The position numbers and the translations under genes were made by a program. A DNA stretch of 63,939 bases, filler included, from Reclinomonas americana ATCC 50394 (lineage: Eukaryota), in NCBI GenBank assembly GCA_048213135.1. It is 4 parts of 2 records of this genome, joined end to end, with 100 filler letters (N's around TTAATTAATTAA, not from the genome) between each part and the next. Parts side by side here need not be neighbours in the genome. Positions count along the whole stretch, not along the records: positions 1 to 9,809 come from PS015163.1; positions 9,910 to 31,680 come from PS015163.1; positions 31,781 to 62,593 come from PS015163.1; 1 more part is not named here. One strand, given 5' to 3'. Shown here piece by piece: positions 529 through 61,800 of this stretch. How positions within the stretch are numbered: position 1 is the first letter of the stretch; each line of letters opens with the position of its first letter. The notes beneath the pieces are model-generated. The model did no database searches. It had not been told where the DNA came from and was given only the letters and a program-made list of their open reading frames with translations.

Positions 529-1637
529 GGCCTTGCCTTCATCCTGCACTGGCGACTGGAGCAACGCGAGCTGGACGCCTCATTCGCCAGCCGCCGTCAG
601 GGATCGGTAGAAGTGGATCACGAGAATGCTCCGGGCGAGTCCGTTAGCACCAAGTTGATGAACTACGCGCTGTACAGTGAGTAGCAGCACCGTCTCCCTT
701 TACATTCGTCATCTCTCGCTAACATGGTGGGCGCAGTTGTCGGCTTTGGCTTGCTCACCAGCACCGTGTTCTCGATTGTGAACATGTTGGAGTCACTGGG
801 CACGGTACGTCACGTTGTGCGCGACGTGGTGAGAATCCGACTAACCTCTATGTTCTGCAGTCGTGGACTCCCGGTGACATCAACAACGTCATGTTGCGCT
901 TCACCGAGTGCTTTTGTTTCTTGCACTCCACGACTCACTCTCCTTTTCGCAGGTATGGAACATTCGCACGTCCTGCATGGAGCCTCGGCTTGGTGCTCCT
1001 CGTCTACGTCATGCACGAGAGCGTGTGCAATCCGTTGCGCAGGATGTGCATGCACCGCTTCTCCTTGCCCGCTCACCCCGACACTGCGCAGTAACTTCAA
1101 GAAGGTCACCGTGGTCAATCTGTGGAGGCAGTGGTTGTCGGCAGGTGAGAGAGAATGGGAAGGGGACTGTCTCCATTCATTCCCCCACTCAATGCCTCCT
1201 TTCGTTCACAGGATACTGGACGCCGCTGGCTCGCCTGACGTATGGGGCCTACCTCATCCACCCAGTAGGTGAGTCTTCTACCCGCACTCACTCTCCGGCC
1301 CCGCTTCTGCTCACTCCCTGCCAGTGATTTTCCTCAACTACATGTCCCGCCGCATGTTGCTGGAGGTTTGTCCCCTGCCTCCTTCGATGCCGTTTTCTTT
1401 CCTGCTCTCACTTCCGCTTCCTCGTCGCAGTACTCGGCGATTGTTGCGCACTACTGCATTCTTGGATGGCCACTCTCCTGATCACATCTGATTCGTGTGT
1501 TTGTCGTGCAGGAAATCACCACCAACACGGTGGCGAACTGCTTCGTCTCGTACATGTTCTCGTACCTGCTGTTCGTGCTGGTGGAGAAGCCGTTCATGCG
1601 CATGGAGGCACTGTTTCTGCCGCACAGGCGCAGCTGA
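529..1637 (+). CDS. Acyltransferase family 3 / NRF-6-like membrane O-acyltransferase, 3' part (5' exons upstream of window)
   Basis: Spliced exons read GLAFILH..., YGTFARPAWSLGLVLLVY, GYWTPLARLTYGAYLIHPV and SYLLFVLVEKPFMRME, matching the 'W.PLSRLTY..YL.H' and 'VE.PF' motifs. Stop TGA at 1635-1637. Confidence 0.85.
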
Positions 1638-1970
1638 GAAGGCGCGCGCATGACAAGTACAGTGAAGGGGTATTTTTGTGATTGGTGGGATTTGGAGGAA
1701 CGGGTTGCAAGCGGGAATGGTAGGTCTGTCAATGGAGACTTGATCCACGCGCAGCGGCGCACAGCAACAACTTGAATCATGCACACAGCTGTGCGTGAGC
1801 AGAGGTTAACATGGGCCTCTGTTTCTCGTAACAATTTGTGACGTCTCAGTTCCGTATGGCTATTCGGATTGCACTGCGCTCCAGCTGCTGCTGTTGTGGA
1901 TCCGGGGTATACGATATCAACGCGGTTGCAAGCAGGGCAGTTCGCCCAACCATACGTCCTGCAGTGGTGC

Positions 1971-2148
1971 AGGTTTGAAGGTCGAGGGTTGAGGGTCGAC
2001 GGTTGAGGGTTGATCACGAGGCTTGAGGGTCAAGGGTTGCAGGTTGAGGGTTGAGGGTCGTGGGGCGAGGGATGAGGGTCGAGGGTTGAGGCTTGAGGCT
2101 TGAGGGTCGTGAGATGAAGGTCAAGGGATGAAGTCAGATCTGCAGGGT
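1971..2148 (+). repeat. Degenerate heptamer array (TTGAGGG/TCGAGGG), telomere-like
   Basis: Runs such as GAGGGTTGAGGGTCGACGGTTGAGGGTTGA...GAGGGTTGAGGGTCG...GAGGCTTGAGGCTTGAGGG show 7-bp periodicity. Confidence 0.75.
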
Positions 2149-2285
2149 GGAAGGCAAAGATAGATAGAGTCGCTGCTTGAACATGTGGTTGTCGATCATG
2201 GGCCAAGCTAAGGATCAATCAGGATCCACCGCTGGCTAAAGTTGTCATGTTGTCCGCTTTTCGACTTCCCGAACACACCACCACG

Positions 2286-6573: not shown

Positions 6574-6620
6574 TAGAGAGGGGGGGTGAAGGGAAAGGAG
6601 AGGAGAGGAGAGGAATGAAT

Positions 6621-7257: not shown

Positions 7258-9757
7258 ATGGAAGAAGAAGATGTCAACGCAGTCACAGAAACACAAATCG
7301 CTGTGGATCACACGCAGTCAACGCATCCTTCTCCTCCTCCTTCTGTGAGTGTGACTCAGCAGCAACAGCAACAGTCTCATGCGGGATTTGTGTGGCGACG
7401 AATCATTGCGGGTGGGTTGGGAGGCACAGCGGGAGCGATTCTCACGCATCCACTGGATTTGTTGAGGACGAGGTTGCAGGTGCGTGAGAGAGAGGAGAGA
7501 GAGAGAGGGAGAGAGAGAGAGAGAGAGAGAGAGANNNNNNNNNNNNNNNNNNNNNNNNNNNNNNNNNNNNNNNNNNNNNNNNNNNNNNNNNNNNNNNNNN
7601 NNNNNNNNNNNNNNNNNNNNNNNNNNNNNNNNNNNNNNNNNNNNNNNNNNNNNNNNNNNNNNNNNNNNNNNNNNNNNNNNNNNNNNNNNNNNNNNNNNNN
7701 NNNNNNNNNNNNNNNNNNNNNNNNNNNNNNNNNNNNNNNNNNNNNNNNNNNNNNNNNNNNNNNNNNNNNNNNNNNNNNNNNNNNNNNNNNNNNNNNNNNN
7801 NNNNNNNNNNNNNNNNNNNNNNNNNNNNNNNNNNNNNNNNNNNNNNNNNNNNNNNNNNNNNNNNNNNNNNNNNNNNNNNNNNNNNNNNNNNNNNNNNNNN
7901 NNNNNNNNNNNNNNNNNNNNNNNNNNNNNNNNNNNNNNNNNNNNNNNNNNNNNNNNNNNNNNNNNNNNNNNNNNNNNNNNNNNNNNNNNNNNNNNNNNNN
8001 NNNNNNNNNNNNNNNNNNNNNNNNNNNNNNNNNNNNNNNNNNNNNNNNNNNNNNNNNNNNNNNNNNNNNNNNNNNNNNNNNNNNNNNNNNNNNNNNNNNN
8101 NNNNNNNNNNNNNNNNNNNNNNNNNNNNNNNNNNNNNNNNNTGCTTGCATACGCGACTGAGCTCGTGCATTCTCTCTTGTTTGCCCTTTCGTCCTCTCGT
8201 CTCTTTCTCTCTGTGTCTCTCACTCTCTCTCTCTCTCTCTCTCTCTGTTCTCGAGAAAGCCGAACGACGAGCAGTCTTGCTTGTTCGGTTGTGAGCTTCA
8301 TTCTTTCTCGTCTCTCTCTGCCTCCCTCTCTCTGTCTGTCTCTCTCACTCACTCACTCTCTCTCTCTCTCTCTCTCTCTCGCACACACACCTTGTGAGAA
8401 AGCCGAACATCCGATCGTCGCATGTTTCATTCTCTTCTTGCGTCGCTCTGCCTCCAGTGCCATTCCTGTTTCTCTGTTCCTCTCTTCTCTCGCCTGCAAG
8501 CTACACACACTTCCTCACTTACTTTGTCTTCGAAAAAGCCGATCGAGCGACCCTCGCTTGCTTCGTTCTCTGCTTCCGTTCCCGAGAAGAAGCGGACTCG
8601 CTTTCTCTCCATGACTCCTTTCGTTCCGTCGTCTGTCGTGCTCCTCGGTTTCTTTACTTGGCCTTACCCTCTCAGTCACGCTCTCCCTCTTTCCCCTCTT
8701 TCCCTTCCCCTGCTTCCCCCTTATCCTCCTCCCCCTTGTGCCCCCCTTCCCCCTTGACCCCCTTCCCCTTCCATCGCAGTCCACCATGGCCTCCGCCACC
8801 TTCGCCCGACCAGCAGCCCCACCGACCACCGCCGCCGTCACCACCAACAAAACCTACATGCCGAAGACCCTACAAGCACTAGTGTTGCGTCATCCCGCCG
8901 CTCCCTCGCCTCCACAACCGTCCTTCTCACTTATTTTTCTAGTGATATTGGACGCCTGGAGGGTATTCGCGGCCTCTTTCGCGGCCTCATACCCAACCTC
9001 GTGGGCGTGATGCCTGCGAGAGCCATTTACTTTGCCTCGTATGGCACGTCGCTGATTTCCTGTCTCAGTGCGTCTGTTGTTGCTAACGTTGTCGTCGTGC
9101 AGATCTCACAAAGAAGCTGCTCACGGCGGGCGACGAATCGAGAGAAACGAGTATCGTACACTCGATATCGGCAGCCAGTGCTGGTGAGCCCGCAGTCGAT
9201 TGTTCCATGCTTCTTGTCTTCATGCGGCCAACCACTTTCTTTGTGCACAGGCGGCGTCACTGCCTCGGCCGTGTCTCCATTAGGTGTCATCAAAACCCGC
9301 ATGCAGCTCCACCCAGGTGCGGCGCATCACCTCCTCTCTCTATATCTCGTCCCCGCTGCTGACCAGGTTGGCACTCGCAGTTGGCGAACCCGGCTACACA
9401 TCCTACTGGGACTGCACACAACGCATGTATAGAAAAGAGGGCATTCGCGCATTCTATCGCGGCCTCTCTGCATCGTATCTAGGTCTGTTCCCACTTCCTT
9501 CACTTGTTGCTTTATTTGCGACTCACGTTGTGTTCATCTGCAGGGACCTCGGAGACTGTCGTACAGTTTTTGTTGTATGAAAAGTTCAAACGCATGGTTG
9601 CAGCGGGCAGTTGCGTTCAGCCTCTTCCACGATCTCTACGCGACAGTCACTCACACCATACATGCAGTGGATGGCGAACGACCTCATCCACTGTGGTTCT
9701 TCATCACCGCCGCAACGTCAAAGCTAATCGCCTCGTGCGTGACATACCCGCACGAGG
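7258..9757 (+). CDS. Mitochondrial carrier, pyrimidine-nucleotide carrier type (SLC25A33/36, Rim2-like); 3' end in gap
   Basis: IIAGGLGGTAGAILTHPLDLLRTRLQ, EGIRGLFRGLIPNLVGVMPARAIYFASY, SPLGVIKTRMQL, EGIRAFYRGLSASYLG and SKLIASCVTYPHE give carrier PX(D/E)XX(K/R) signatures plus the Rim2-type motifs. Confidence 0.9.
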
Positions 9758-9853
9758 TACGTGCCTGTCTCATCTCCTGTCCATTTGTGTTCCTTGTTTC
9801 CAAACTCGCNNNNNNNNNNNNNNNNNNNNNNNNNNNNNNNNNNNNNNNNNNNN

Positions 9854-9865
9854 TTAATTAATTAA
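9854..9865. other. Synthetic contig linker TTAATTAATTAA (also at 31725-31736 and 62638-62649)
   Basis: An identical 12-mer with stops in all six frames sits centred in ~100-nt N runs, three times. Confidence 0.95.
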
Positions 9866-9951
9866 NNNNNNNNNNNNNNNNNNNNNNNNNNNNNNNNNNN
9901 NNNNNNNNNCTGCTTCTCCCTTTTCCCTCCCCCTTCCCCTCCTCCCTTACC

Positions 9952-11329: not shown

Positions 11330-11386
<57 letters not shown>

Positions 11387-11874: not shown

Positions 11875-14800
11875 ATGAAGGTACGTGGAGATGACGGAAT
11901 GAGAGTGTGTCTGTGTGTGTCTCGTCGCGCATGGACATCGTCGACATCTGCACGTGTCTCACGCACACGCGCGCAATTTGCACGTGGCCTTTTCCACTCA
12001 CTGTCTGTCTATGCATCTGTCTCGCGTGTCTGTGCATGCATCGAGCGATCGCAATGCACAAAAGTGCACGGCCAAAGTGGTTTCGCGCCATGCTCATCTT
12101 TGCGCTTCTCTCTCAGGCGCCGCCCTGATGGAGGCCCATCGCAGTGCCAAGGCCAGCAGTGGTGCATCAGCTGCTGCATCAGCTGCATCGTCAGCATCCG
12201 GCGGTGCGGCTGCTGCATCAGCTGCTGGATCGTCGGCCGAGGAGCGATTGTTGCGAGCATTGGCGCCTGATGCGTCGCCGGCCTCGGCCGGCGACAACAG
12301 CAACAGAATAGGAGGCACAGGGCGCATTGGGTCGGGCAGTGGGGGCCATGATGACTCAGACGCAGCGCGATTTGTGCTGTTGCGTTTGTTGTTGTGTAGA
12401 AGGCAACTGGTGGGTGGTATTCAGACTGATTGAGTTGGCGATGTGCTGCAGTGCGTCGACGAGTCTGTTGTTGCCCGAGGAGCTCTTTCGCAGTCTGTTG
12501 GTGACGGATCAGGCGGCGCGAGAGGCGGCCACTGATAAGCGTTGCGCGGAAGTGGAAACGCCCCTGTTGTCTTTGAGAAACAAGAGATTGACTCTCTGTG
12601 CTTTGTGCAGTGGTGCACGATCTGTTGAATGTCAGGGGGAACCACGGCCAACCGCTGTTGTACTCGTATGTGGCGACGGTGCATCGATTCGCCTCGTGTT
12701 GTCCCTTTGGCGACGTTCGATCGAGGATGATGTGTGTGTTGGAGCAAATGGAAAAGGTGGGTTTTATCATCGGTGAATTCGAGGAAGCAGGTGGCGGTGG
12801 ATTGATTGCAGTGCGATGCAGGATCTCAAAATCCCTATTCCACGCACGTCGGTGATCCCCTCGCGGTTCATGAGGGCCTCCGATCGCGCGGTGGTGGTTG
12901 ACGATGTGTATCCTGGTGAGTGGGTTCAAAGGGCAAGGTGGTGTTTCGCGGATCGTGCACCTGTTTGTCTGTCTGCTCAACTGTACATGGTGTGCGTGTG
13001 CTTCTTGGGCTGCCTACCAATTGGCTGGTTTTCTTTCTGTGTTCTTTCTCTCTCGGTGTGTTCTATCCTGGCTGTCACTCGCTCATGCATTGTTTGTTTG
13101 TGTGTCTGTGCATCGCCCGTTGTGCGTGTCTGTCTGAATGCACTCTCTCTCTCTCTCGCATTGTCTGCTTGTCGACCAACTAGCTTGACTCACATTCATT
13201 CTGCATGTCGTTTTTCCTGTCTCTCTTGCACACGCACGCACACTGTCGTTCTTCCCTCGTTGATGCTCTACTTGTGTGTTAGTGAGCGTCTCTCTGACTC
13301 ACTTTCGGTCTGCGTTTCTAACTTTCTGTCTTCTCTTTACACGCACACACTGTCTCGTTGTCTCCTCTGCTGTCCTTGCTTTCTTTTGTCTCGTGATTAT
13401 CTCTTCGTCTTAGCGTGCCTCTCAATTTTCGCTTTCTTTCTCGCTGACTAACTTTCTCTGTCAGTCTACTCTGACTCAGTCTGCCTCACTGTCTTTCTTT
13501 CTGCCCCATCCTACTCTCTCCCTCTCCCTTCCCCTCCTCCCTTCCCCCTCTCTCCCTTCCCCTTCTCCCCCTCCCCTCCTATCCCTTTCCCTTTGCCTTC
13601 CCCTCATATCCCTTTCCCTTCTNNNNNNNNNNNNNNNNNNNNNNNNNNNNNNNNNNNNNNNNNNNNNNNNNNNNNNNNNNNNNNNNNNNNNNNNNNNNNN
13701 NNNNNNNNNNNNNNNNNNNNNNNNNNNNNNNNNNNNNNNNNNNNNNNNNNNNNNNNNNNNNNNNNNNNNNNNNNNNNNNNNNNNNNNNNNNNNNNNNNNN
13801 NNNNNNNNNNNNNNNNNNNNNNNNNNNNNNNNNNNNNNNNNNNNNNNNNNNNNNNNNNNNNNNNNNNNNNNNNNNNNNNNNNNNNNNNNNNNNNNNNNNN
13901 NNNNNNNNNNNNNNNNNNNNNNNNNNNNNNNNNNNNNNNNNNNNNNNNNNNNNNNNNNNNNNNNNNNNNNNNNNNNNNNNNNNNNNNNNNNNNNNNNNNN
14001 NNNNNNNNNNNNNNNNNNNNNNNNNNNNNNNNNNNNNNNNNNNNNNNNNNNNNNNNNNNNNNNNNNNNNNNNNNNNNNNNNNNNNNNNNNNNNNNNNNNN
14101 NNNNNNNNNNNNNNNNNNNNNNNNNNNNNNNNNNNNNNNNNNNNNNNNNNNNNNNNNNNNNNNNNNNNNNNNNNNNNNNNNNNNNNNNNNNNNNNNNNNN
14201 NNNNNNNNNNNNNNNNNNNNNNNNNNNNNNNNNNNNNNNNNNNNNNNNNNNNNNNNNNNNNNNNNNNNNNNNNNNNNNNNNNNNNNNNNNNNNNNNNNNN
14301 NNNNNNNNNNNNNNNNNNNNNNNNNNNNNNNNNNNNNNNNNNNNNNNNNNNNNNNNNTGGTGTTTCACAAGAGGCGGTGCGTATGCGAAGAGGAGAGGGC
14401 ACTGGCGGAGATGTGAAAGATGGCTAATGTCTTGTGTCGTTGCGCAGGATTTGTTTATCCCGCGCTTGCACCAAAAGCTGCGCCGCTGCTACACGTCGTC
14501 GCTGCCGAACTCCATGTCATCGTCGTCGCTGTCGCGTGACGAGGCCGACTTGGATGCGGTGGAAGCGTCGCTCCTCTACCTGGGATCGGAGGCTGACGAG
14601 AGCAGTGCGGCGGCGCTGGCGGCCTCTGGTGGTGCGTATTTTCGAGGGAGAAGAGTGACGACTTGCATTTGTGTCTCACGCGTCGATGCGTGGGAGCAGA
14701 TTTGCGCGACGGTACAGAAGATCTGCTGCAAAAGCTAAATATTATGCCGCTGGAGGAGGATGATGAGCTGACGGAGGATGAGGAGCACCGGCATGCCGCG

Positions 14801-17597: not shown

Positions 17598-19798
17598 ATG
17601 TGGCGCGAGGTGGGCACCGCCGCCTCCCTCAGCCTCTTCTCCTCCATCTACGCCGCCCTCGTGCTCCGCCACAGCGCGACCACTCCTCCCGGCCTCACTC
17701 GCCTCCTCGCCGCGCTTCCCGTCTTCCCTCTCCTGTTAAGCGCGCCTTTTGCCCTGGATGGCGCCACCTATCCCGTCGCCTGCACCCTCGCCTCCTTCAC
17801 CATCTCCTGGCTCACTCTCGTGAAGATCCTCGCCTTGTGCTTCAACCGCGGCTCTCTGGCCGACGAACGCCTCTCTGCGCTGCAGTTTGTGGTGTGTGCG
17901 CTGTTGCCGATTGTGCCCGAGAGGCGAGCGCATGTGGAGAAGAACTCGATGCGGGCGTTGCTGGTGGTGTTGCTGGCCAAGACAACGGCTCTCGGGCTGT
18001 TGTTGCGCGTGCTGACGTCAGAGAGGTGGGCGGCGTTGTTGCCGCCGGTGGCGGTGCATTTGGCGTATGCTTTCGCCTTGTACTTCTTCTTGGGATTGGT
18101 GTTGGATGGACCGGCGGCGGCGGTGTTGAGTGCGGTGGGCATTCATACGGTGGGTGTGAGGGGGAAGGGGGAAAGGGGGAAGGAAGGGGAGGGAAGGGGA
18201 AGGGGAGGGGAAGGAGGGGAAGTAACTCAATCATGAGGCAGTCTCTCTGCATGTCTCTCTCTCTGTCTGTCTGTCTCTCCATCTCTCTCCACTACTTGAG
18301 AAGCTCTATTCCTCAGCCTGGCTGCCGCTTATCCTCCTCTTCACTTGCTTATATGCACTGAATAGCATTCTTCTTTGATCGCTGCTTCTACGTCTCTCGC
18401 CCTCTACTGGAGAAGCTGCGATCCTCTGTCGGGCTGGCACTCAACTACTTCTATCGTTCTCTGTCTTACATGGCGTGCAGTTGACGAATGGCATGCTGCG
18501 TCTCTCGCTCCACTTGACAAGCTGTGACCCTCTCCATTGCCAGCACTGCATGCAGTCGACGAACGGCATGCTTCGTCTTCGATCGCTGTCTCTTCCTCAT
18601 GAACTGCACTCTTCAACCTGGCTGCCACCCAACCCTACTCCATTCACTGTCTTTCCAGTACTGACAAATGGCATGCTGCCGTCCTTCCCTATCTAGCACG
18701 GCGTGCGGTCGATGAATGGCCTGCTGTGCCTCTCGTTCCTGTCTCATTCTATCCTATACTTGACGAACTGCATTGCCGGCCACGTCTGCCGCCCAACACC
18801 TTCCATTCCTTTCTTTCCAGCACATGTTTAGCGTGATGTATGTCATGCTGTGCCTCTCGTTCTCTGTGGCTCTGTCTCTCTCCTCCTACCTCATGACTTG
18901 AGTTCTTCAGCCTGGCCGCCACTCAGCCTCATCCGTTCCTCACTTTCCAGCACATCTTGCAGTCGACGAATGTCACTCTGCGCCTCTCATACGCTCTTTC
19001 CTCATCGCTCCCTCTGCCATCCAGCCCTTTCCGTTCCTCTCTTTTCTGCACATCGTGAAGTTCACAAACGGCGTGATGTGTCTTTCTGTTCCTCATCCTC
19101 ATCCTCATCCGACTCTTCCCTCCTGCGTCTTCCTTTCTTTGCATCTTCTCGTCTCTGCGCTCCTGAGCCCTTCTGCCACTCATCCTTCTCCTTCCCTGAC
19201 CTTCCCCTTTCCCCCTTCCCAGCGCGCCCACTTCCGCGAACCCTACCTCGCCTCCTCCGTCCGCGAATTTTGGGGATTCCGCTGGAACCTGGTCGCCGGC
19301 GACACCCTGCGCCGCCTCTTTTATGATCCGTGGGTGGACGGGTGTCTGGTGAAGCCTGCGGCGGGTGACGAAAAGACTACACCACGTCGTGAGCCGTCGG
19401 CGCTCATCAAGTACATTGTTGCGTCGAATGCCGCACATTACCCCACACGCGCGTGTACCTCACTTTTTTCTCCCTTTCCCTCCCCCCAGGCCACACAATC
19501 GGCATTCTGTGCCAGCGGCCTGCTCCACGAGTTGATTCTGTGGCAGCTGTCGCGCCAGCCGCCCACCTGGGAGTGGTTCCTGTTCTTCTCGCTGAACGGA
19601 CCTCTGATTTTGCTGGAGCAGTTGGTGGAGTGGGAGCGCATTCCGCGCTGGGTGCGTGTGCCCATCACGCTCGGCTGGCTCATGTTCCTCGGCGAGATGT
19701 TCTTCTTCCCGCCGGTGGCGCGCCACGGCATCGACAAGATGGTGGTCGGAGCCGTCTACGATGTGTACAAGTCGGCAGTGGGTATGATGGCCTCGTAG
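17598..19798 (+). CDS. MBOAT long-chain-alcohol O-acyltransferase / wax-synthase-like protein
   Basis: Exons 17598-18149, 19223-19417 and 19490-19798. Motifs: HFREPYLASSVREFWGFRWNL, AFCASGLLHE (catalytic His), WEWFLFFSLNG and FFFPP. Confidence 0.88.
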
Positions 19799-19911: not shown

Positions 19912-22900
19912 TTACACCTTGTACTGGAACACGGCGAGGGCAATGCTCTGCGGCTCCATGGTGACGGTGATTTGGTAAATGTTGCCGGAGACGCGCACTA
20001 GCGACACGTTTTCCTTCACCAGCTCGGCCGAGGCCACAAGCTGCTGAATCTGCTGCTGCGTCGGGTACATCGGCTGGCCCTGCTGCTGCCAGGCTGCAAA
20101 GTGGCGGACAAGGGGGATATCATGAGATCCCACAACGCAGCAAGGGGACTGAGATAGAATGCACGCAACTCTTGAAGGGATTCACGTGCGTGCTGTCGAT
20201 GCGGTACAACAGGACATCGCCCGGAATGGCTCCCGGCTGCTGGCCCAAGTCGAACTGCAGCTGCACGGTCTCCGTCTGCACCGGTGGCGGCGGCTGGTTG
20301 TAGTAAATGGGATAAAAGTTGGTCAGCAGGGCCGACACGGAGACGGACTGGCCAGAGGCGGGGCTGTTGTTGACAGTGACCAGCGCGTCGACAGTGCCCT
20401 CTGCGAGTCGTGGAGGAATGAGAAAAGGCAAAGATGGCAAGCGAAAAAGAGAGACGCAACGAGTCTGCGAGTACACGATGCGATTCTGCATCATGTGCAG
20501 CAGCTGCATGGCGCGGTGTCCGGGCTTGGCGACGTTCTGCGGGCACAGCGAGTTAGGATAGAGGAAGTGGACGGCACGAGAAGGAAGGCATGCAACGCAC
20601 GTGGATGGTGATGAGGCCGAACTTCTGGTTGAACGGCGTCGAATCCATGCCACCCTCCTGCGGTCGGGTGAGACAAGACACCAAGAGAGCGAAAGCATTC
20701 CCCTTCTACATCCCCGCGCACCTCAAAAATGTCGGTAAAGGTCCAGAAGCTGAGGGTCGTCACACCGGCGGCGTACAGGCGCTGCGAGGCGAGTGCCATG
20801 TGCCCGAGGAACGCGGCCGTGTACTGTCCGTCGGCAACATTGGTGCCGAGACCCGAGTTGAACTCGGTGATGACGAGTGGCTTNNNNNNNNNNNNNNNNN
20901 NNNNNNNNNNNNNNNNNNNNNNNNNNNNNNNNNNNNNNNNNNNNNNNNNNNNNNNNNNNNNNNNNNNNNNNNNNNNNNNNNNNNNNNNNNNNNNNNNNNN
21001 NNNNNNNNNNNNNNNNNNNNNNNNNNNNNNNNNNNNNNNNNNNNNNNNNNNNNNNNNNNNNNNNNNNNNNNNNNNNNNNNNNNNNNNNNNNNNNNNNNNN
21101 NNNNNNNNNNNNNNNNNNNNNNNNNNNNNNNNNNNNNNNNNNNNNNNNNNNNNNNNNNNNNNNNNNNNNNNNNNNNNNNNNNNNNNNNNNNNNNNNNNNN
21201 NNNNNNNNNNNNNNNNNNNNNNNNNNNNNNNNNNNNNNNNNNNNNNNNNNNNNNNNNNNNNNNNNNNNNNNNNNNNNNNNNNNNNNNNNNNNNNNNNNNN
21301 NNNNNNNNNNNNNNNNNNNNNNNNNNNNNNNNNNNNNNNNNNNNNNNNNNNNNNNNNNNNNNNNNNNNNNNNNNNNNNNNNNNNNNNNNNNNNNNNNNNN
21401 NNNNNNNNNNNNNNNNNNNNNNNNNNNNNNNNNNNNNNNNNNNNNNNNNNNNNNNNNNNNNNNNNNNNNNNNNNNNNNNNNNNNNNNNNNNNNNNNNNNN
21501 NNNNNNNNNNNNNNNNNNNNNNNNNNNNNNNNNNNNNNNNNNNNNNNNNNNNNNNNNNNNNNNNNNNNNNNNNNNNNNNNNNNNNNNNNNNNNNNNNNNN
21601 NNNNNNNNNNNNNNNNNNNNNNNNNNNNNNNNNNNNNNNNNNNNNNNNNNNNNNNNNNNNNNNNNNNNNNNNNNNNNNNNNNNNNNNNNNNNNNNNNNNN
21701 NNNNNNNNNNNNNNNNNNNNNNNNNNNNNNNNNNNNNNNNNNNNNNNNNNNNNNNNNNNNNGCCAAAGTCCAGGCGCGCAATGTCGGCCGCCAGCATAAG
21801 GCGGTCCTCGAAACCGGTGCGCGTCATCTGCACCTGCGGGTCGGTCGGGTACAGGTGCGTGGTGACAAAGTCGAGCGGATCGCCGCTCGATTGGATGTAG
21901 TCGGAGAAGGCGGTGAGCCAGCCGGTTTGCGCGGTGGCCGGGCCGCCGACCTGCGATAAGGGGAAGGGAGAGGGGGGGAAGGGAGAAGGGGGAAGGGGGA
22001 GGGGGAAGGGGGAAGGGAGAAGGGAGAAGGTAAGAGGAGGGAAGGGAGAGGGGGGAAGGGAGAAGGTGAGATGAGGGGAAAGGGGAAAGGAGGAAGCGGG
22101 AGAGCGAGGAGAAAGTGAGAAATTGAGAGAAGAGGAACAGAAGGAGGGAGGGAGTGCGGGACAGACTGAAAAGACAGAAAATGGTGAGTGACAGGGACGG
22201 AGCAAGGGGTGCCATCAGAAAGCACCCGCAAGGCGGAGAATCAGCAAGCGCAGAGCAGAATGGAAAGTGAACAAGTGATCGCAAGGGTACCATGAGAGAG
22301 CGCGCAAGGAAGATAAAATAGCGCACGCGAGAGACAAGAGGATGGAAAGAGACCGTCTGAAGGGAGCCATTAGAGAGCGCACGCAAAAGGGCAAAAAAGA
22401 ATACGAAAGTGAGAGGCAAGAAGAGAGAGCGAGTGAAGACAACGATGCACCAGAGAATAAGAACGAAAAAGAGAAAAGGCCGTGGAAGATACGAACAGAG
22501 ATATGCACAATCGAGAAGAGGAGAAGAGATAATTTGCAACGACAAGAAAGTTCTCCGCAGTTGATGCACACCTGCAGATTCGGATCGGCAGCCTTAATGG
22601 CACGCGACGTGTGGTGGTACAGCTCGTAGTAGGCAGTGCGGTTGCCGGCATCCTCGCCGCATCCGTTCTGCACGTAGAAGAAGCTGCAGGCCCAGAGAGA
22701 CTGAATCAGCTCCACTCTACTGTCTCGCTCACTATCACCAGCTAACTCGCACTCACCCGCAGTTCGGCTCGTTCCACACCTCGAACATCATGCCGTCGCT
22801 ACCGTAGCGCTGGCTGAGGTGGGTGGCGAGGTCGTAGATGAAGGCGTCCCACTTGTTGTAGTCGCGAGGGGGAGTGATGTTGCCTGAGAGAGGAGGGATG

Positions 22901-43068: not shown

Positions 43069-43714
43069 AAACAAACACAAAGAGATCCACGCCGAGCGCC
43101 TGTTGGGTTGTCGCCGCCGGCTCTTTTTTTACAATCCTACTCCACCGGCCTCACTCGCTTGTACATTCGGTGTAACCTCTCTGTCAATGAATGAGTGCTG
43201 TGGGTATGACGGGAAGGGGAGAGGGGAGAGGGGTTGGGAAGGGGGAGGAAGAGTGTCCTGGATATGAGTTCCTGTCACAAACTGTTGCGTTGTGTGCGTG
43301 CTCTTTGCGTCTCGCTTGCTGCTGACTCGACGCAGCGGGTGTGTGGCCGACTGATCGGTGTCTCTCTTATCATCGCTTGCCACCTCCGGAGCCACGTCAC
43401 AAGCGTGATCGGTGTCTCCCCTTGCAGCACGAATGATGCTAGACGTGCCGTTGCGAGCAGAATAAACCATATTGCCGACAATAACCTTGGTACAACAACA
43501 ACATACAAAGACACAGTTAAAAGGCCCTCGGAGATCATGACTTCAAAGATTTGGACCTCTCGCTGCGACGTTCCGAGAGCAACAATGCACCCGCTGTCTT
43601 CACACACCAGTGGCGAAGTACGTGCAGACTGCCCGTTACCTGAGCCTGCATCAACGTCGCGCCTCATAAAGCGAAAAGGACACGCGCGAGTCCCACACGC
43701 ACAAATCAAAGACA

Positions 43715-45645
43715 ATGGGCAAGAGGAGTCGCTCTGCCTCGCCCTCCTCCTCCTCCTCGTCATCCTCCTCGGCCTCCGACGACGAGTCCAGTTACGCAAC
43801 ACAACTTAACAACGCACAATCAGTCAATCACTCACACACACAAAGGCCGACATCGTCGTCGCCACCGCTCGCCTTCATCGTCCTCCTCTTCTTCCTCTGC
43901 CTCAGAGGACGCCGACCGGCGACGTCGCCGGCGCGAAAAGGAGAAGCGAAGGGAGGACGAGGAACGTCGGCGTCGGCGTCGCAAGAAGGAGAAGAAGGAG
44001 AAGAAGGAGAAGGAGCGGAAGAAGCGAGAGAAGCGGTTGCGGAGGAAGAAGGAGGCTGCGGAGGGGGAGAGTGGAGGAGCGAGAGAGGAGAGTTGCGTGT
44101 GCTTGTGAGTGAGTGATTGACTGGGAGGTGTGACTGATTTGGTCGGTGGTGCAGGCTTTGGTCCGTCGATGGCTGATGAGTTGAGTTTGTGCGACTTATT
44201 GGGATTGGTGGCTTCTCTGTTGGGAAGCCACTCTGGAGCTGCAGTCTGCAGATTGATGTTCCTTTTGCTTCAAGCCACTCAGGAACTGCAGCGTTTGCAC
44301 TCGTGCCATGTCTGCGTCACATTCTACAGTCGCTCAATCTCGTGGCTCTTAGCACGTCTTGTCCTTGTCATTGTCAGCATGCGTTCTGCAGGCCTTCCAT
44401 GCTGTTCTCGCAGTGCTTGTCTCGTCTGTGCTGCATTCTGCACACTAACATGTGCACTGCATTCTCCTGTTCTTCCTTGCTTCTCTCGCAAGCAGATTTG
44501 TGTGGCCCCCAGTTCTTCTACTCTCGTCGGAACTGGGGCAGCTTGTTCTGTGTGGCCCTATGCAACCTGTGTCGCATTCTGCAGGCCTTCCTTGCTGTTC
44601 TTGCAGTGTCCACTCTCGTGACTCGACTTGCTGCAGTCTGCGCACTGTATCACAGTGTATTGTATTGTTGCTCTTCTTTGCTTTTCTCTCACAAGTCGCT
44701 TTCTTGGTCTGTAGTGCCCTCGTTTCTCGTCTCATGTTGTTCTGTGTCGCGCTCAGCACGCTGTATCACATGCTGCAGTCCTTCTCTGCCTCTCTCGCTC
44801 TGAAGCTGCATTGCTCACTCTTGTGTCTTCTGTGTCGCGCTCAGCGCACACTACTGCTCTTCCTTGCTGCTTCTCACATGAAGTCACTCTGCAGCTGCAA
44901 TGCCCACGTATCTTGTCTGACTCTGTTGTCACGTTCGCGACCCAGGAGACTCATTCTCCGTTTCACGCCACTCGCCTCACCTCAGTTGGCACACTGCTGC
45001 CTCCGCTTGTTTAGATAGCTCTTCGTGTGTGCTCATACCTCGCTTTCGATGTTGTCTCCCTCGCTTTGCTCATCTTTATGTCAGCTGCCGTCCTTCCCCT
45101 CCTGTCCTTCTCTCTCACACCCTCGCTTTGCTTCTCTTCCCTCCTGGCGCAGCTCCGGCTCACCCTCCGTCTCCTCGCGCGAGAAAACCAAGCAGCAGCG
45201 TGCAGAGATTGCCGCCGCACACGACATGGAGACGTATGTGGGTCGTCGGTAAGTCCCTTGCTTCTCGCCTCTCCCACGCTTCACCACCCACCCGCCTGTC
45301 GCTCCGCAGTGTGTTCCAGATTCAGTGTGCCCGCGCGAAAAAGGCCGAAAAGGCACACACCAAGGTCAGTGCTCCTTCCCCCCTGCTCACGCCCTGCTCC
45401 CCGCCACATCACTCACCCACGGGTCACCCGTCTGTTGGCGATCGCACGCCCGATTCTGTGTGATCCCCACCACCCCGCCCTCTCTTTCTCTCTCTCTTTT
45501 CCTTTCTCTTCCTCTCGCACAACAGCTCACCGAGTACCAGGCGAAAGAGGCCAGCAAGATGGAGGCCTTCATGGCCGCCATTCTCGCCGGGCAGAATAAC
45601 ATTGGCAGCTCGCCGACTCCGTCAGGTACCAGCAGCGGCAAGTGA
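43715..45645 (+). CDS. Small Ser-rich and Arg/Lys/Glu-rich protein, probably nuclear
   Basis: MGKRSRSASPSSSS..., RRRRRKKEKKEKKEKERKKREK and a last exon LTEYQAKEASKMEAFMAAIL...GK*. Middle exons are uncertain. Confidence 0.55.
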
Positions 45646-45910: not shown

Positions 45911-47646
45911 ATGACCAAGTGGCTTGTTGGTATCGACGGAAGCTCATTCAGGTAAAGTGCACTCTCACCTCAAGTCAGTCAGAGCCAGTCACTTACTGAC
46001 TCTCACTCTCACTCTTACTCACAGCTATGCGGCTGCGGAGAAGGCCGCTCGTCTGGCGCACACTGGTCAGAGAGATAATGAGAGAGAATCTCAGTTAACA
46101 GTCACTCACTCACTCACTGTGTGACAGGCGACACTATTGAGCTTGTGGGCATTGTCAATCAACCTCTCCCAACCTCACTGGTGTGTGTCTGTCTCTGTGT
46201 GTGTTAGTGAGAGTCACTGTTGATCTTTTTTCTCTGTCTCTCAGACAATGGGAGGTGCTGCGCTGGGCTTTGTGTATGTGCCAGTGGGTAAGTCGATGAT
46301 GTGTGGTGGGAGAGGGAAGGGAGGAGTGAGAGGGAGAAGGGATAGAGAGAGAGCGGAGGGAGAGAGACGGAGTGACTCTGGTGAAGCTGCTTCCCGGCGA
46401 GTCTCTCTCCTTGCTTGCTTTGTCACTGTTCATTACTTGTCTCGCGTCCTCCTTTCTCTATCCATGTGCTTCTCGTTCTCTGCCTTCTTCTTAGTCTCGT
46501 TCTCCCATTCGTCTCCTTCTTCCTATTCTCCCCTGTCTCCACACCCTCCCTCTCCACTTCCCTCGTCTTTGATCTTGTTCTCTTGCTTCTTCCTCTCCTC
46601 CTTGCCGCTCGATCTCCCCATCCGTCTTCTTCCTGTGGCCTCGCTGCCCTCTTGTTCTTGCCTTTCTAGTGTGTCTCGCTTCGCCCACCTCTTTCGACTT
46701 CCTTGGTCTCGTTGTTCTTGTTCTCGTTATTCTTGATCTCCTTCTTCTTCATTATCTTCCTTCTCTTCTTCCTCCTTTCTTTTCTGTTCTCTTGTCCTTC
46801 CCGTTCTCCTTCTCCTCCACTACCCTCGTCTTTCTTCTTGTTCTCTTTTTCTTCCTCTCCTCCTTGCCGTTCGATCTTCCCATCCGTCTTCTTCCTCTTC
46901 TGCTTCTCGTGTCCCTGCATGTTTCGTCGTTCTCTCTTCTTCCTTTCTCTTCCTCCTCCTCTTTCACCTTCTTCCTTCTTCTCCTCCTTCTTCTCCTCCT
47001 TCTCCTTCTCCTCCTCCTCCTCTCCTTCTTCTTATCATCCTTCGCCTTTCCCTTGTCCACCCCCTTCTCCTGTCCTTCTCACTCCTCATTCCAGAGGGCG
47101 AGCCGAGTCCATACGATCTGGTAAGCCGACCCCTGCCTGCTTCTCCCCCTCCTCGACCATCACTCATCGCGCACGCAGCCGGCTCCCGACGCCGTGGAGG
47201 TCGAGAAGCGGTCGCGGGAAATCACCTGTGCGTTTGGCAAGATCGAGGTAACGATGCCTCCCAAACGTATTTGAGAGGAGGATGGTTGGGAGCTGACTGT
47301 CGCGCGAGGAAAATAGGAGATTCTGGGTGACTCCAAGCAGGTGCACTTGACGGAGAAGATTGTGCCGGCGATGAGTGCGCGTGATGCACTGGTGGCGATT
47401 GCGGAGCACGACAAGGTCGATGTGATTGTGGTGGGCACGCGAGGACGCGGCGCAGTTGCGTGATACGTGCATATCGAAGGCTTCCTGGCCAGGTGTTCAC
47501 GTAGGGTGTGTGTGTGTGTGCTCCAGATTAAGCGCGCGCTGCTGGGATCGACCGCAGATTATCTGTGCCATCACGCCGAGTGCTCGGTGCTGGTGGTGCG
47601 CCCGGAGGAGGTGGAAGCGTGCAGCGGCAGCCGCGGAGTTCACTGA
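45911..47646 (+). CDS. Universal stress protein (USP-A domain)
   Basis: Eight small exons give MTKWLVGIDGSSFSYAAAEKA..., ARDALVAIAEHDKVDVIVVGTRGRGA|IKRALLGSTADYLCHHAECSVLVVR. Confidence 0.92.
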
Positions 47647-51638: not shown

Positions 51639-52595
51639 ATGGCGTCGTTCTTCACGCAAGGCTTCCCAGGTCTCCTTGCATCTTGTATGACGAATGTATG
51701 TGCCTCTGCATGGTGTTGCTGATCATCTCTCTGTGTGCGTGCGTGTCATTTTCGCAGAGGATTATGTGAACCCGCGCAAGATCCCGCGCTTGTTGTTTGC
51801 TGTTGCGTTGCACACACGCACATATGTGTGTGTCTGTGCATAAGAGTGTCAGAGTGAGCGAGCGAGAAAGGGAGAGAGCGCGCGCGCGATTGAGAATAGT
51901 TGTCTCTGAGGTTGTGTTGTCTCACTCTCTTCTGCTCTGCACATGTGTGCACTCGCGCTCTCTTGCTCTCTCTTTCTCTCTGTGCGTCATTATGCGTGCG
52001 CGTGCACTGCNNNNNNNNNNNNNNNNNNNNCGCCTCGCGCTGTGACTTGAGGAACTTGACCATCTCCACCGTCTTTCGCAGCTCCGGGATGCGCTCGTTG
52101 GCAGACTCACGACGCGCAGTCAGCAGACGCTCGTGCATTTGGTACTTGCTGTGTGTGAAATGAGGACAAGGGCAAGGGAGGGAAGGGCAAGACAAGGGAA
52201 ACGGAGGGAAGGGGAAGACAAGGGCGTTCATCGGCATTCCTTCTGCGCCTTTCTCTCTCTCTCAGTGGTCAGTCACACTCTCACTCTCTCATTCTTTCCT
52301 CTCTCTTCGCTGTCTCCTTCTGTCCTTCTCTCCCTCTGTGTGTGTGTGCGAGCGAGCGAGTGAGTGAGTGAGTGAGTGGGTAGAGAGAGACTCTCCGTCT
52401 TCCTCTTTTCTCCCTTTCATCTCTCGTATCTCCTCTCTCTCTCACACACACTCTCTCTCTCTCTCTCTCACTCTCTCTGCGTGTGTGTGTGTGTGAGTGA
52501 GAAAGTAGAGAGAGACAAGTCTATCGCCCTCTCCCTGTTTCCTACACACCTTCGTTTCCTCCCTCTTTCCTCTGTCATATCTCCCTCTCTCTCTC

Positions 52596-52644
<49 letters not shown>

Positions 52645-53260: not shown

Positions 53261-53439
53261 TCAGTCGCGCTGCTGCAGAGGATGTGTCTGTTGGTGGAGG
53301 AGCAAGAATGTAGGTTGTTTCTAAAGGGAGATGCACGTTGCGCGCTCGGCGAAGATGGTTTGTGTGACTCTCCGGTTTGATTGTGCATCACTCAGCTGTC
53401 TGCGAGCTCGCGATTTTCCCGCTCGATGACAGTAAGGCT

Positions 53440-53905: not shown

Positions 53906-53926
53906 TTCTCCACATCACCACCATCA

Positions 53927-57744: not shown

Positions 57745-58700
57745 CAACAGAGAACTGACACTTGGGCACAACAGGCGATGCCATTAAGCGATCAATCACC
57801 ACCGATTCGGTGCGTCTGATCTGCGGCAGCGGCCACAGCGAGAGTTCCTTGCCTGTCTGTGCGTCGATGAGGTTCGTGAGAGAAGCTGTGGTTTTATTCA
57901 ACTTTACTCATATCTTCAACCCTGATGTGCAGTCACCGCTCGTCGCACACGCTGTCACCGTCGACGTGGCCACCACTCCGCTCTTTGGCACACACTGCTT
58001 TGTCGACGCAGTGAATGTCCACGAGCCGCACGCAGTCAACTGGGAGCACCACAGTGAGCACGCTTGTGGTCCGGTTGTTGTTTTGATGGCCCACGTGAGA
58101 TCGCCACCAGGCCGATCTGCATACCAACCAACACGCCACATCTGTCACGATCCTCCCGCCACCGTGAGCTATGAGCATTCCTGCGTACGCACCCGTGCTG
58201 GTCTGGAAGCCGCTGCTGTCGTATGCCGCCGCACTTGTCTTGCGTCCCGATACCAAGCAGAAATGCGAGCCACACACGTTGCTCGTCTCTGGGTTGGCGG
58301 CCACTACCGGAACGGTGCTCTGCGTGCGACAGAAGTGAGTTTGTGGTATCCTCACACGCTCCTGCCTGTCACCGATAAAACGTGCCTTCAAAGTACACAA
58401 GCTCACGCCGAGAGTGTTGGATGCCGCAGCAGCATCCAAGAAGGTCCACGATCGGCATTGTGGGTACAGATCGCACAATTCGCAGCATCCGACCTCACTA
58501 GCAACCGAAGGCATTGTGCCCAAGATCGTGCCACCAGGTCGATCCACTGCCTCGAATAGGCACACTTCCAATGCCGCTGTTCGGTGTGGCGAAGAGTGAG
58601 ACGGCCGATCATGGGACACAGAGCGGAATCTCTACGCAACGAGCCACAACTCCATTCTGCACCGTTGAACAACCAGTATTCAACGCTGCACACGCACCCC
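57745..58700 (-). CDS. Coding segments with two PAN/apple-like domains; gene boundaries unresolved
   Basis: SEVGCCELCDLYPQCRSWTF...CTLK and TTTGPQACSLWCSQLTACGSWTFTASTKQCVPKSG...TSG show the C-x3-C-x5-C-x2-WTF-xn-C-x2-K pattern. Confidence 0.6.
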
Positions 58701-58879
58701 AATCACCGTTAGCATCGCCCATCTCTCTTGCTGACACCAACAATTGCGGATGGAGTGCGAGTCCAACGAGGAAAAGAGTATGGCTGAACGAAGTTCCACA
58801 GTAGCTGTACCGAATTGCGCATGACGAAGCGCGAAACTCTCGATCATTTTCATCTCCGACAGGCGGTGCGTATCCTTCT

Positions 58880-61800
58880 CATCATCCAACAATAAATGCA
58901 CATGCACCAGTCACTCTTCTCCACCCTTGATTCTGTCGCCTGCACTCTTCATCCAAGAGCGCATCACCAAACCCACTCTTATGAGCTTGCATGACACCAC
59001 CAAACGATACCTCTCCCCCTGCCCTCCTCTCTCCTTCCCTTCACCCTCCTCCCTGTCCCCACCCACGCACCATACACAATCATAAACTGCTTGGTGTACG
59101 TCAGCGCGCCGTCGCTCACTTGCACAAACACTTGCAGTCGCCGACTCAGTGGCGGAGCCACCGAAATCGTCAGCTGATTGCCACCGACGATGGTGAACAG
59201 AGCCGCATGCACACCACCAACGATGCTGAATGTCGGCGTCTGTCCCGTGTTGAGATCCACCATGCTCAGTGTGCCCACCGTGAACGGCACCGTCGCACTC
59301 GAGTACGTCTGCGCACCCGACAGCAGAATGTCGCTCGGCGCCACGCTTCCTGCACACACACTCTGGTCAGCTGATACACGCATACACACTCATACACATA
59401 CATATACAGAGAGGGGGAGTGAAGAGAGAGAGAGAGAGAGAGAGCAAGGGAGAGAGAAGAACAACATGAAGGAAAAGAAGCACAGCTCTAGATCTCCACA
59501 CACAAACAAACAAGAAAGCAACGGCCGAATGTTCCCTGCGCTCACCAATGGCGAATGCCGACACGGCCAGATATGCCTTGGCTGGCGCCCATCGTATGCA
59601 CAGCTCGTACGTGCCACCAGTTGCACCCGCCGCCCCAATCGTCAGCGTGATGCTGGTCGCACTGCCGAATGTGCTGCTGACGCTGGTGCTGGCCACGGCT
59701 GTCGGCGGTGTCGTGGCGGCACAAAGTGGAGTGCCCAACACATACGCCGACGCATCTGCCGAGTTGTTCACCAGCGCGGATCCCGTCAGTGTTATCAACT
59801 GGCCAGCCAGTGCCGACACGAAGGTGGCCGACAGAGAAGTCACGGTCGGCGCTGCATGCAAATGGCAAAACAGTGAGTCTCACCAAGCAGCAACGTCACG
59901 CACAGTCAGAAATGGCACGCAACCAGCAATGTTGAGGGTCTGGTCGAACGACATCGCAGGGTTGCCATTGTCGGTCGTGCGCACAATCACCACCAGCGAG
60001 GCCGTCACTCCCGCAGTTGCAAACTGCAGCTGATTGCCAGACGCAATCGTCACCAATGCGCTGCTGGCGCCACCCACCACCGAATACGTGAACGACTGCT
60101 GCAAATCCACATCACTCGTGCTCATCGTGCCGATCGCCTGCCCCACCGTGCTGGGTGGAAAATAAGAGCTCGCACTCAGCGTCACCGCCGTCGGTGCATT
60201 GTTCACTGCGGGAACGACACGCTCAGCATTCACGCCAAGAAGCACGCCACACTCACTCTGCTACTCACCCGACGTCACAGAAAATGACTTGTCAAAAAAC
60301 ATGGGCGGTGTGCCATTGTCAAACGAGCGAATCGTAACGGCCAGTGGACTACCGGACTGACCCGCCGAAGTGATCTGCAGTTGTGCGCCAGCGCTAACCG
60401 AAAACGCAGCGCCGTTCGCACCTCCACTGACCGCGTACGTAAATGACTGTCCAACGTTATCGTCGCTGATACTCATTGTGCACACGGTCATGTTGGCCGT
60501 CGACGGTGCGACATACGTTGTCGTTCCAGCGCACGCAATGTCGGTCGGCGCCGAGTTGGAGGTGGTGAAGGACATGGTAGAGCCGGTGAGGGTGCTGGGC
60601 GCAGTGGAGGTTGAAACGGCACGGAAATAGTACGTCCAGTTGGCGGCCAGCGATGTCAGAGACGCAGTCAAGGTGGTGCTGGAAGCGACGCCAGAGTTGG
60701 CCGGAGTAGCAGCGATGGTGGTGGAGCCGATGGTCAGTCGGCGGATAGTATGGTTGCTCCAGTCTGGAGAGGGAAATGCTGAGAAGGAAGACAAGACACA
60801 AAAGTGGTTCAATCTCTGCTTTGATCACGCACCTGCAATATACAGCGTGGATGATGCGGAATCGTACGATATAAATACCTGGACTGACACAATGAGAGAA
60901 GCACCATATTATAGTCACCATCAGTACCAGACGAACGAACCGGATTTGTCATCTGAGCAGCTGTAAGTGGGCTCCCATCAGCTGATCCTGCTACACCTGC
61001 AGCACCGGCGATGGTTGTAACGGCGCCAGTGCTGATGACGACTTGGCGAATGGTGAAATTCATAAACTTTAAATGATAAAGATCTAAAAATTAGTGACAC
61101 GAGTAATACTTCACGTGCATTGCGTTAGCCCGACGCAACATCAGCAACGTACAGAACGCCACGCGCTCGATCAAGCTGTATGCCAAGAGGTTCGTTGAAT
61201 CGAGCCGCTGTACCTGTGGCATCCGTTGACCCTGTTACCGCGGCGAGCGACCCGGCCAGAGTCGACAAGGTCATCGCCAACATGTCGATCACTCGAATGG
61301 TGTGGCCGGATCGATCAGCTGCATGGCCCTGTCCCGTTAGTGATCATTCAAACACGCTAGAATACACACGAATACACGCACCAACATAGAGTCGATTGGC
61401 CGTCGTGTCCAGAGCCAAGCCGTTGGGTCCAACAAACCGCGCTGTTGTTACGCACGCTCCGTCAACTGTACCCGACGATCCAATCGTGCCACAGAAGGTG
61501 GTTACTTCGCCGCCGAATGTAACCTAAGAAACGGATCGAATGAACAGATCGTAGAAGCACGGCAGTAGCACATGCGAGCAGGCACCTTTCTGATGGCGAG
61601 GTTACTCCAGTCACCAACATACACCGCCTTGTTCGAAGGATCAACCAAGATGCCATGCGGTCTGTTAAATCTCGCACTAGATCCGGTGCCATTTGCAGTG
61701 CCGGCTGACCCGTTGCCAGCCAGAGTCGATACAGAACCGGAAGGGGTACTCACACGGATTGCGTGGTTCGATTGCTAGTGGCGGTAGTTGTCAGGGACAG

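Follow-up and report, generated by a model that had tools for sequence, protein, structure and literature searches.

Does Reclinomonas americana ATCC 50394 start all of its introns in the same way? The question is raised by a stretch of 63,939 bases of its draft genome (hereafter the window; about 50% G + C, 20 runs of N), in which a preliminary description had listed 17 sites beginning with GTTGCG and proposed that they form a second class of 5′ splice site (donor), shifted by one nucleotide and avoiding G at the last exon position (-1). All 17 sites carry the hexamer on the strand given; 16 have A, C or T at -1 and only 59923 has G, exactly as described. Use as a donor could be supported for 12 of the 17 (seven strongly and five moderately), while the other five are candidates only, and two members absent from the earlier list were added, 1034 (GTTGCGC) and 61835 (GTTGAGT). 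Judged from word counts and gene models, the organism uses two kinds of donor, a degenerate G/GTNNGY and a rigid T/GTTGCG(T/C), the slash marking the exon end; they are called ordinary and class 2 below.

Two populations of donors

Word counts, which need no gene model, were compared with 100 dinucleotide shuffles. On both strands together, GTTGCG was found 59 times against 37.8 ± 6.4 in the shuffles, none of which reached 59. HGTTGCGT was found 21 times (6.4 ± 2.4 in shuffles; 0/100 reached it), and the single octamer TGTTGCGT 14 times (2.0 ± 1.4; 0/100), a seven-fold enrichment. The excess was not significant for VGTTGCGT (9 versus 5.9 ± 2.6; 18/100 reached it), and GGTTGCGT was as frequent as in the shuffles (2 versus 1.6; 50/100). 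The ordinary form GGTGCGT was found 18 times against 7.7 ± 2.8 (0/100). Thus the excess of the new donor sits after T, and that of the ordinary GTGCGT after G. The size of the excess suggests that the window may hold about 15 to 18 class 2 donors.

The same split was found in the supported introns. G at -1 was present in none of 13 GTTG(C/A)G donors and in 14 of the 17 remaining GT donors with support (Fisher p = 4.8e-6); in the strict subset with homologue, profile, structure or repeat evidence the figures were 0/9 and 10/11 (p = 1.2e-4). Left out of this comparison were 59923, the 621-nucleotide (nt) intron at 22571-21951, the GC-AG intron at 9044-9102, the donor 9760 (g/GTACGT), whose acceptor is lost in a run of N, and the ambiguous donor pair 61385/61381. 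With 59923 added, the class 2 count becomes 1/14 and p about 3e-5 by our own arithmetic. The claim of two donor populations separated by the -1 base is therefore upheld. The G preference of ordinary donors is absent in class 2; avoidance of G itself was not shown, since G precedes GTT in 16.7% of cases in the window and 0/13 against this background gives p = 0.09. The -1 bases of the 13 donors were T in eight, A in three, C in two and G in none; the share of T compares with a background of 37.9% (p = 0.07). On these counts the -1 rule is a T preference together with a missing G preference, and not an avoidance of G.

The intron side of the two donors also differs. Among the 17 ordinary donors, T was found at +2 in 17, G at +5 in 16, and T or C at +6 in 12 and three, respectively; +3 was G in 10, T in five and A or C in one each, and +4 was mixed. 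In class 2 (n = 13), GTTG at +1 to +4 was invariant, C was found at +5 in 12, G at +6 in 13, and T and C at +7 in 10 and three, respectively. The ordinary consensus bases at -1, +2, +3, +5 and +6 are matched by class 2 at +1, +3, +4, +6 and +7 in 13, 13, 13, 13 and 10 of 13 donors; read one base downstream, class 2 is thus the ordinary pattern except for a T in place of the first intron G. Measured against the organism's own ordinary donors, class 2 fits poorly in the normal register and well one base downstream.

Other intron features were shared. The median length was 62 nt in class 2 and 64 nt in ordinary introns, over the same range, and the 3′ regions were alike, with a CTCAC/CTAAC-like branch region and a CAG end. 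When the 13 class 2 introns were aligned, bases 1-6 were conserved at ≥90% and base 7 at ≥70%, but nothing was conserved past base 7 and the mean column identity was 31%. The mapped genes are very intron-dense, with intron lengths mostly of 54-76 nt, and about 10 of some 31 introns in the five mapped genes belong to class 2.

The preliminary description had further grouped GTTGAG and GTTCGT donors with the new class and explained the class as GTGCGT with an extra U. These donors do not form one class, and the idea of a generic extra T is not supported. The GTTCGT donor (10365) and the GTTTGT and GTTGGT donors carry the ordinary G at +5, and the latter two also have G at -1. GTTGAGT, which an extra T in GTGAGT would give, was not enriched (10 versus 10.6 in shuffles), although one GTTGAGT donor, 61835, is real.

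Support for the individual introns

Introns were mapped with a protein-to-DNA aligner that allowed them at any GT..AG pair and scored the protein match alone; it was therefore blind to positions -3 to -1 and +3 to +8. Support was called strong when this spliced aligner placed a donor, or when profile or structure coordinates flanked the junction. All introns and candidate sites are listed in Table 1. The supported introns begin with GT and end with AG, as in U2-type introns, and their removal restores the frame and the protein match; in both classes, most members seem to have a motif like CTCAC, CTAAC or CTGAC some 10-30 nt ahead of the AG (by eye, uncounted). By these marks the supported GTTGCG introns are genuine spliceosomal introns of a short GT-AG kind.

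In the mitochondrial carrier gene, donor 8884 was kept by the aligner also when GC donors were permitted. In the GH39-like gene, conserved residues flank the junction at 20169 with no gap, and the split codon encodes the T of a conserved TW pair. The intron at 20460 has a length that is a multiple of three, and the evidence for it is that its 20 residues are absent from both homologues. In the Trm9-like gene, the exon downstream of 10496 begins at residue 82 of 5cm2_Z (a Trm9 chain) and position 62 of Pfam Methyltransf_11; residues 29-50 of 5cm2_Z are found two exons upstream, the 31-residue exon between fits 51-81, and 82-101 follow. In the universal stress protein gene, the Pfam Usp match 84-115 stops one residue before donor 47455 and the match 117-141 begins at the first residue after the acceptor; a TGA lies in frame at intron bases 7-9.

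The NHL/TIG repeat gene offers a ruler of its own. The NHL profile match 1-19 is cut exactly at donor 61139, and the repeat resumes in the next exon, spaced as in an intact repeat of a neighbouring exon; only the acceptor at 61067 keeps the frame. Donor 61835 lies at the identical position within the NHL repeat. In the 61139 intron a TAG acceptor at 61084, 17 nt upstream of 61067, would lead to a stop after four codons; it is the first AG past the branch-like motif, yet the intron must use the AAG at 61067. Donor 59923 coincides in place and phase with 60268, the GTGAGT donor of the paralogous domain that precedes it, and a TIG profile match starts with the first residue of the following exon; 59899 offers another donor in phase. 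This pair suggests that an intron may switch donor class, and a switch at a paralogous position would explain why 59923 keeps G at -1.

For the other moderately supported donors, the MBOAT_2 profile covers 4-36 upstream and 55-83 downstream of the 19418 intron in the same phase, and at 42947 EF-hand profiles reach the last residue before the donor, the 3′ end being formed by CTCAC, a run of T and CAG. In the acyltransferase-like gene, a chain of eight introns, three of them GTTGCGC, yields a single open frame to the stop. No alternative in-phase GT is found within 40 nt of 1443; around 1034, other in-phase GTs at 1025 and 1046 likewise keep the frame open.

Table 1. Introns and candidate sites in the window. 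Lower-case letters give the -1 base; positions are as in the window; support grades (strong, moderate) refer to the 17 sites listed originally.
Position	Strand	-1	Donor	Length (nt)	Phase	Gene	Support and remarks
Class 2 introns
893..952	+	t	GTTGCGC	60		acyltransferase-like	moderate; in frame, stop-free; open-frame compatibility only
1034..1091	+	c	GTTGCGC	58		acyltransferase-like	retention shifts frame to a stop
1443..1511	+	t	GTTGCGC	69		acyltransferase-like	moderate; retention gives a stop
8884..8942	+	t	GTTGCGT	59	2	mitochondrial carrier	strong; aligner, P0001 and P0002
9610..9667	+	a	GTTGCGT	58	1	mitochondrial carrier	strong; aligner, P0001 and P0002
10435..10496	-	t	GTTGCGT	62	0	Trm9-like methyltransferase	strong
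19418..19489	+	t	GTTGCGT	72	0	MBOAT_2	moderate; in frame, stop-free
20094..20169	-	a	GTTGCGT	76	1	GH39-like	strong; aligner, P0005 and P0018
20401..20460	-	c	GTTGCGT	60	1	GH39-like	strong; aligner, P0005 and P0018
42947..43018	+	t	GTTGCGT	72	1	EF-hand	moderate; in frame, stop-free
47455..47526	+	a	GTTGCGT	72	0	universal stress protein	strong
59852..59923	-	g	GTTGCGT	72	1		moderate; sole member with G at -1
61067..61139	-	t	GTTGCGT	73	0	NHL repeat	strong; AAG acceptor
61775..61835	-	t	GTTGAGT	61	0	NHL	NHL profile 1-19 ends at donor
Candidate sites
12541..12610	+	c	GTTGCGC		1		open frames of 76 and 80 codons
28849..28920	+	t	GTTGCGT	72			in frame, stop-free within open reading frame 27973-29259
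34831..35001	+	t	GTTGCGT	171			rich in CA and GT repeats; open-reading-frame logic only
35029..35034	+	t	GTTGCGT				
44092..44154	+	a	GTTGCGT				upstream low-complexity, coding scores negative
Further octamers
3983-3990	-		TGTTGCGT				
12378-12385	+		TGTTGCGT				
43283-43290	+		TGTTGCGT				
43794-43801	-		TGTTGCGT				
51801-51808	+		TGTTGCGT				
63734-63741	+		TGTTGCGT				
Ordinary introns
677	+	a	GTGAGT			acyltransferase-like	open-frame chain, 677..1430
805	+	g	GTACGT			acyltransferase-like	same chain
1145	+	g	GTGAGA			acyltransferase-like	same chain
1269	+	g	GTGAGT			acyltransferase-like	same chain
1366	+	g	GTTTGT			acyltransferase-like	same chain
9184-9250	+	g	GTGAGC			mitochondrial carrier	aligner, P0001 and P0002
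9317-9380	+	g	GTGCGG			mitochondrial carrier	aligner, P0001 and P0002
9483-9543	+	g	GTCTGT			mitochondrial carrier	aligner, P0001 and P0002
10653-10588	-	g	GTGCGT			Trm9-like	sequence reading with 5cm2_Z and Pfam matches
10365-10303	-	a	GTTCGT			Trm9-like	sequence reading with 5cm2_Z and Pfam matches
23577-23510	-	g	GTTTGC			GH39-like	aligner, P0005 and P0018
23411-23358	-	g	GTTGGT			GH39-like	aligner, P0005 and P0018
23287-22884	-	g	GTTTGT			GH39-like	aligner, P0005 and P0018
22756-22684	-	g	GTGAGT			GH39-like	aligner, P0005 and P0018
22571-21951	-	g	GTGTGC			GH39-like	aligner, P0005 and P0018
20721-20658	-	g	GTGCGC			GH39-like	aligner, P0005 and P0018
20600-20537	-	c	GTGCGT			GH39-like	aligner, P0005 and P0018
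61524..61585	-	g	GTGCCT	62		NHL repeat	preceding exon contains a full NHL repeat ending at donor
GC-AG intron
9044-9102	+	g	GCACGT	59	1	mitochondrial carrier	chosen once GC donors were allowed

Five of the 17 sites are without independent support. No acceptor that keeps the frame was found for 35029, and no Pfam family matched the open frames around 12541. If 34831 and 35029 were both donors, an exon of 27 nt (35002-35028, plus strand) would be implied. A weak match of Pfam Claudin_2 at 34817-35026 was judged unreliable, as the frame is rich in Cys, hydrophobic and of low complexity. The candidate site 44092 may lie in a 5′ untranslated region. Six further TGTTGCGT octamers, not in the earlier list, were located (Table 1); several of them may be donors of unmodelled genes or untranslated regions, about two being expected by chance among the 14. 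The GTTGCGAG at 10372 (minus strand) was rejected as a donor because its use breaks the frame, the real donor being the GTTCGT at 10365, seven bases downstream; the hexamer alone is therefore insufficient to make a donor.

Gene finding by our own Viterbi models, with flat or trained donors, was abandoned and the resulting intron lists were discarded, as the introns called on shuffled sequence numbered about half of those on the real one (45-52 versus 124, and 37-41 versus 75). Self-training ran away or drifted to CT/GT low-complexity sequence; long GA, GT and CT microsatellites are present all over the window and defeated the self-trained gene finders. In the first run with flat donors, GTTGCG ranked first, with 6 of 114 introns and 6 of 38 among those with good 3′ signals. 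Local hexamer enrichment tests with open-reading-frame criteria gave no discrimination, and a model of the 3′ signal alone found 45 sites versus 14-27 in shuffles, a poor separation of real from shuffled sequence.

The genes named by Pfam from pieces of open reading frame were a P-loop/TPR gene, the mitochondrial carrier, the MBOAT_2 gene, the GH39-like gene, two methyltransferases, an EF-hand protein, the universal stress protein and the NHL/TIG repeat gene. The protein collections searched lack close relatives. A homologue search with the carrier piece returned two proteins, and that with the GH39 piece 20 weak matches, the useful ones being P0005 and P0018, each of about 490 residues; P0018 is a named protein of Pelomyxa schiedti. 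Searches with the MBOAT and GTPase pieces found no protein, and no relative turned up in metagenome scans with a GH39 exon or with P0001. The GH39-like gene contains two long introns, 22884-23287 (404 nt) and 21951-22571 (621 nt), amid neighbours of 54-76 nt, and the 621-nt intron could conceal unaligned exons. Downstream of the acyltransferase-like gene, at about 1975-2110 (plus strand), lies a tandem array of GGTTGAGG-like units. Two 44-base runs of N, 12 bases apart, were found at each of 9810-9909, 31681-31780 and 62594-62693; the other N gaps are irregular in length, and these paired runs may be masked stretches and not assembly gaps.

A proposed shifted register and its rivals

We tentatively favour, at a probability of about 0.4, the reading that class 2 donors are recognised by U1 small nuclear RNA (snRNA) in a register shifted by one nucleotide. 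The rigid heptamer would then be what ordinary donors show from -1 to +6, shifted by one base into the intron, with the intron G at +1 taking the place of the exon G at -1, and G at +6 and Y at +7 those of G at +5 and Y at +6. The early helix with U1 would form one nucleotide downstream while cleavage remained at the GU, and the pairing of U6 would accommodate one extra nucleotide. G at -1 would no longer be selected because its pairing partner is taken up by G at +1, and the strict GCG at +4 to +6 is suggested to arise because every remaining pair is needed once +2 is mismatched. Such rigidity would fit best if the pairing segment of the organism's U1 matches GTGCGT-type donors.

Several points weigh against the shifted register. 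All counts come from one 64-kb window, and the five mapped genes were selected for holding the claimed sites. The rigidity far exceeds that expected of a simple shift: ordinary donors have GA and GC at +3/+4 in five of 17 each, but GTTGAGT makes up one of 13 class 2 donors and is not enriched in the window. A shifted -1 should mimic the ordinary -2, which is A in 9 of 17; in class 2, however, -1 is T in eight of 13, and this preference lacks a pairing partner and is unexplained by the shift. With a standard U1, moreover, C at +5 would be mismatched where A would pair. A reader that pairs with the octamer over its full length would explain both the missing GTTGAGT excess and the T at -1, and a U1 with a pairing segment matched to GTGCGT would explain them in part.

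That dedicated reader would be a second U1-like snRNA or a U1 variant complementary to the octamer T/GTTGCGT, the ordinary machinery reading the branch region and 3′ end. The arrangement would resemble that of U11 in the minor spliceosome, which has a rigid donor of its own to read. It is a possible explanation, though on balance we consider it unlikely. It would account for the rigid 7-8 contiguous bases including -1 (+1 to +4 and +6 invariant, +7 a pyrimidine in 13/13), for an enrichment confined to TGTTGCGT among the -1 contexts, for the lack of enrichment of GTTGAGT and for the absent exon G preference. Set against it are branch and acceptor signals that are equal in both classes, one member with A at +5 and three with C at +7; no U1 variant is known to us, moreover, that has an altered pairing segment and serves a major class of introns. 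The fuller form of this explanation, in which an octamer-complementary U1-type snRNA works in the major spliceosome on between a tenth and a third of all introns, with U2 and the 3′ signals shared, is doubtful to a somewhat greater degree; if true, such an snRNA would add a third type of 5′ splice-site reader to U1 and U11. A search of the window with Rfam gave zero matches at the gathering score, and no spliceosomal snRNA was among the 26 matches at E ≤ 1, which were mostly to microRNA-precursor, 3′-untranslated-region and snoRNA families and well below the gathering scores.

An ordinary U1 in the normal register could alternatively bulge out one U at +2 or +3. The heptamer is indeed GTGCGT plus one T, and a register with +3 (or +2) bulged out has been validated in human cells by the account given in PMC4856993. 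A bulge, however, leaves -1 with its usual partner, and G should stay favoured there, contrary to the 0/13 (1/14 with 59923) against 14/17 observed. We infer that the missing G preference fits the shifted register better for this reason, and regard a bulge as improbable.

A quite different possibility is that these introns are of the GC-AG type, cut three bases downstream (GTT/GCGT...) with the frame kept and one codon added to the exon. Every GTTGCG has GC at +4/+5, the shift of three bases is neutral to the frame, and one GC-AG intron, 9044-9102, is present in the carrier gene. When GC donors were allowed there, the aligner score rose from 508 to 543, a gain that includes a switch from 9610 to GC at 9613, where conservation is poor. 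At the other three of the four sites tested with homologues (8884, 20460 and 20169), however, GT was kept with GC allowed, and at 20169 the T encoded by the split codon belongs to a TW pair conserved in P0018. The contiguous Usp positions at 47455, the exon length relative to 5cm2_Z at 10496 and, at 61139, the repeat spacing that follows D in the NHL motif likewise fit GT. Donor 61835 has no GC at +4, and the genuine GC donor at 9044 is ordinary-looking (g/GCACGT), whereas GCGTNN would be without G at +5. On balance the evidence leans towards GT, and the GC-AG explanation is disfavoured and rather improbable.

More improbable again is an origin from mobile introns (introner-like elements), the 5′ end and the preceding T being the element end and target site leftovers. 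An identical 5′ end in unrelated genes, a fixed preceding base and the narrow lengths of 58-76 nt would be expected of such relics, but ordinary introns have the same length range, the alignment showed no similarity over whole introns, and the donor class differs at the paralogous positions 60268 (GTGAGT) and 59923 (GTTGCGT). Least tenable of all is that the sites are no donors but chance GTTGCG words in coding sequence within wrong gene models: although five of the 17 sites lack independent support, five of the 13 class 2 introns compared are in frame and stop-free so that an open frame alone does not need them, our gene finders placed many introns on shuffled sequence, and the GTTGCGAG at 10372 is no donor, seven junctions match homologues, profiles or structures on both sides where the frame needs the intron, and the octamer is in excess at 14 versus 2.0.

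Comparison with known donor systems

The reading of donors by U1 and U6 belongs to the most conserved steps in gene expression, and off-register donors are, to our knowledge, confined to rare cases in humans. There, shifted registers and registers with a bulge at +3/+2 have been experimentally established (Tan et al. 2016, PMC4856993); the same paper summarises earlier work on human noncanonical registers (Roca and Krainer 2009; Roca et al. 2012), and in its account the validated noncanonical registers together make up an estimated 1.5% of human donors and are heterogeneous. As in these human sites, class 2 keeps the GU start and the cleavage site and has its U1-pairing bases one position further into the intron. 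In contrast to them as described there, one fixed heptamer is used here, in an estimated tenth to third of introns, with a T preference of its own at -1 and a sister form, GTTGAGT, that is not enriched.

The two main kinds of 5′ splice site written AG//GU and //GURAG both lie in the normal register, and keep either G at +5 or G at -1. Class 2 has neither, with C at +5 in 12/13 and G at -1 in 0/13, while the ordinary class of this organism has both, with G at -1 in 14/17 and G at +5 in 16/17; class 2 is thus neither of the two. In published work the AG//GU and //GURAG classes are linked to loop 1 of U5, to the ACAGA box of U6 and to LUC7 proteins (PMC9803359, PMC11732430, PMC11842720). The likeness to that system, as far as these papers describe it, is that donors are split in two and that the exon end at -1 and the intron side trade importance.

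U12-type introns resemble class 2 in that they are in the minority, have a rigid donor on the intron side and show no preference in the exon, a combination which points to a dedicated pairing partner. They differ in the donor motif itself and in their rigid branch motif; the introns described here have no such motif, and nothing is conserved in them past base 7. The share of U12-type introns is given as 0.36% (PMC4856993).

Among the papers listed by string searches of the literature, none was on a donor class of the GTTGCG/GUUGCG type, a result that cannot show the class to be unpublished. In none of the systems compared above is one off-register heptamer a major donor class. If true, such a class would be a natural experiment on the distance between the 5′ splice-site helix and the cleavage site, and would bear on the role of G at -1 and on the co-evolution of snRNA pairing segments with the donor set. 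For annotation, gene finders trained on a single donor matrix will overlook such introns, or place them wrongly, in this organism and its relatives. Set beside the known systems, the sequence pattern points to an unusual, lineage-specific way of recognising the start of an intron.

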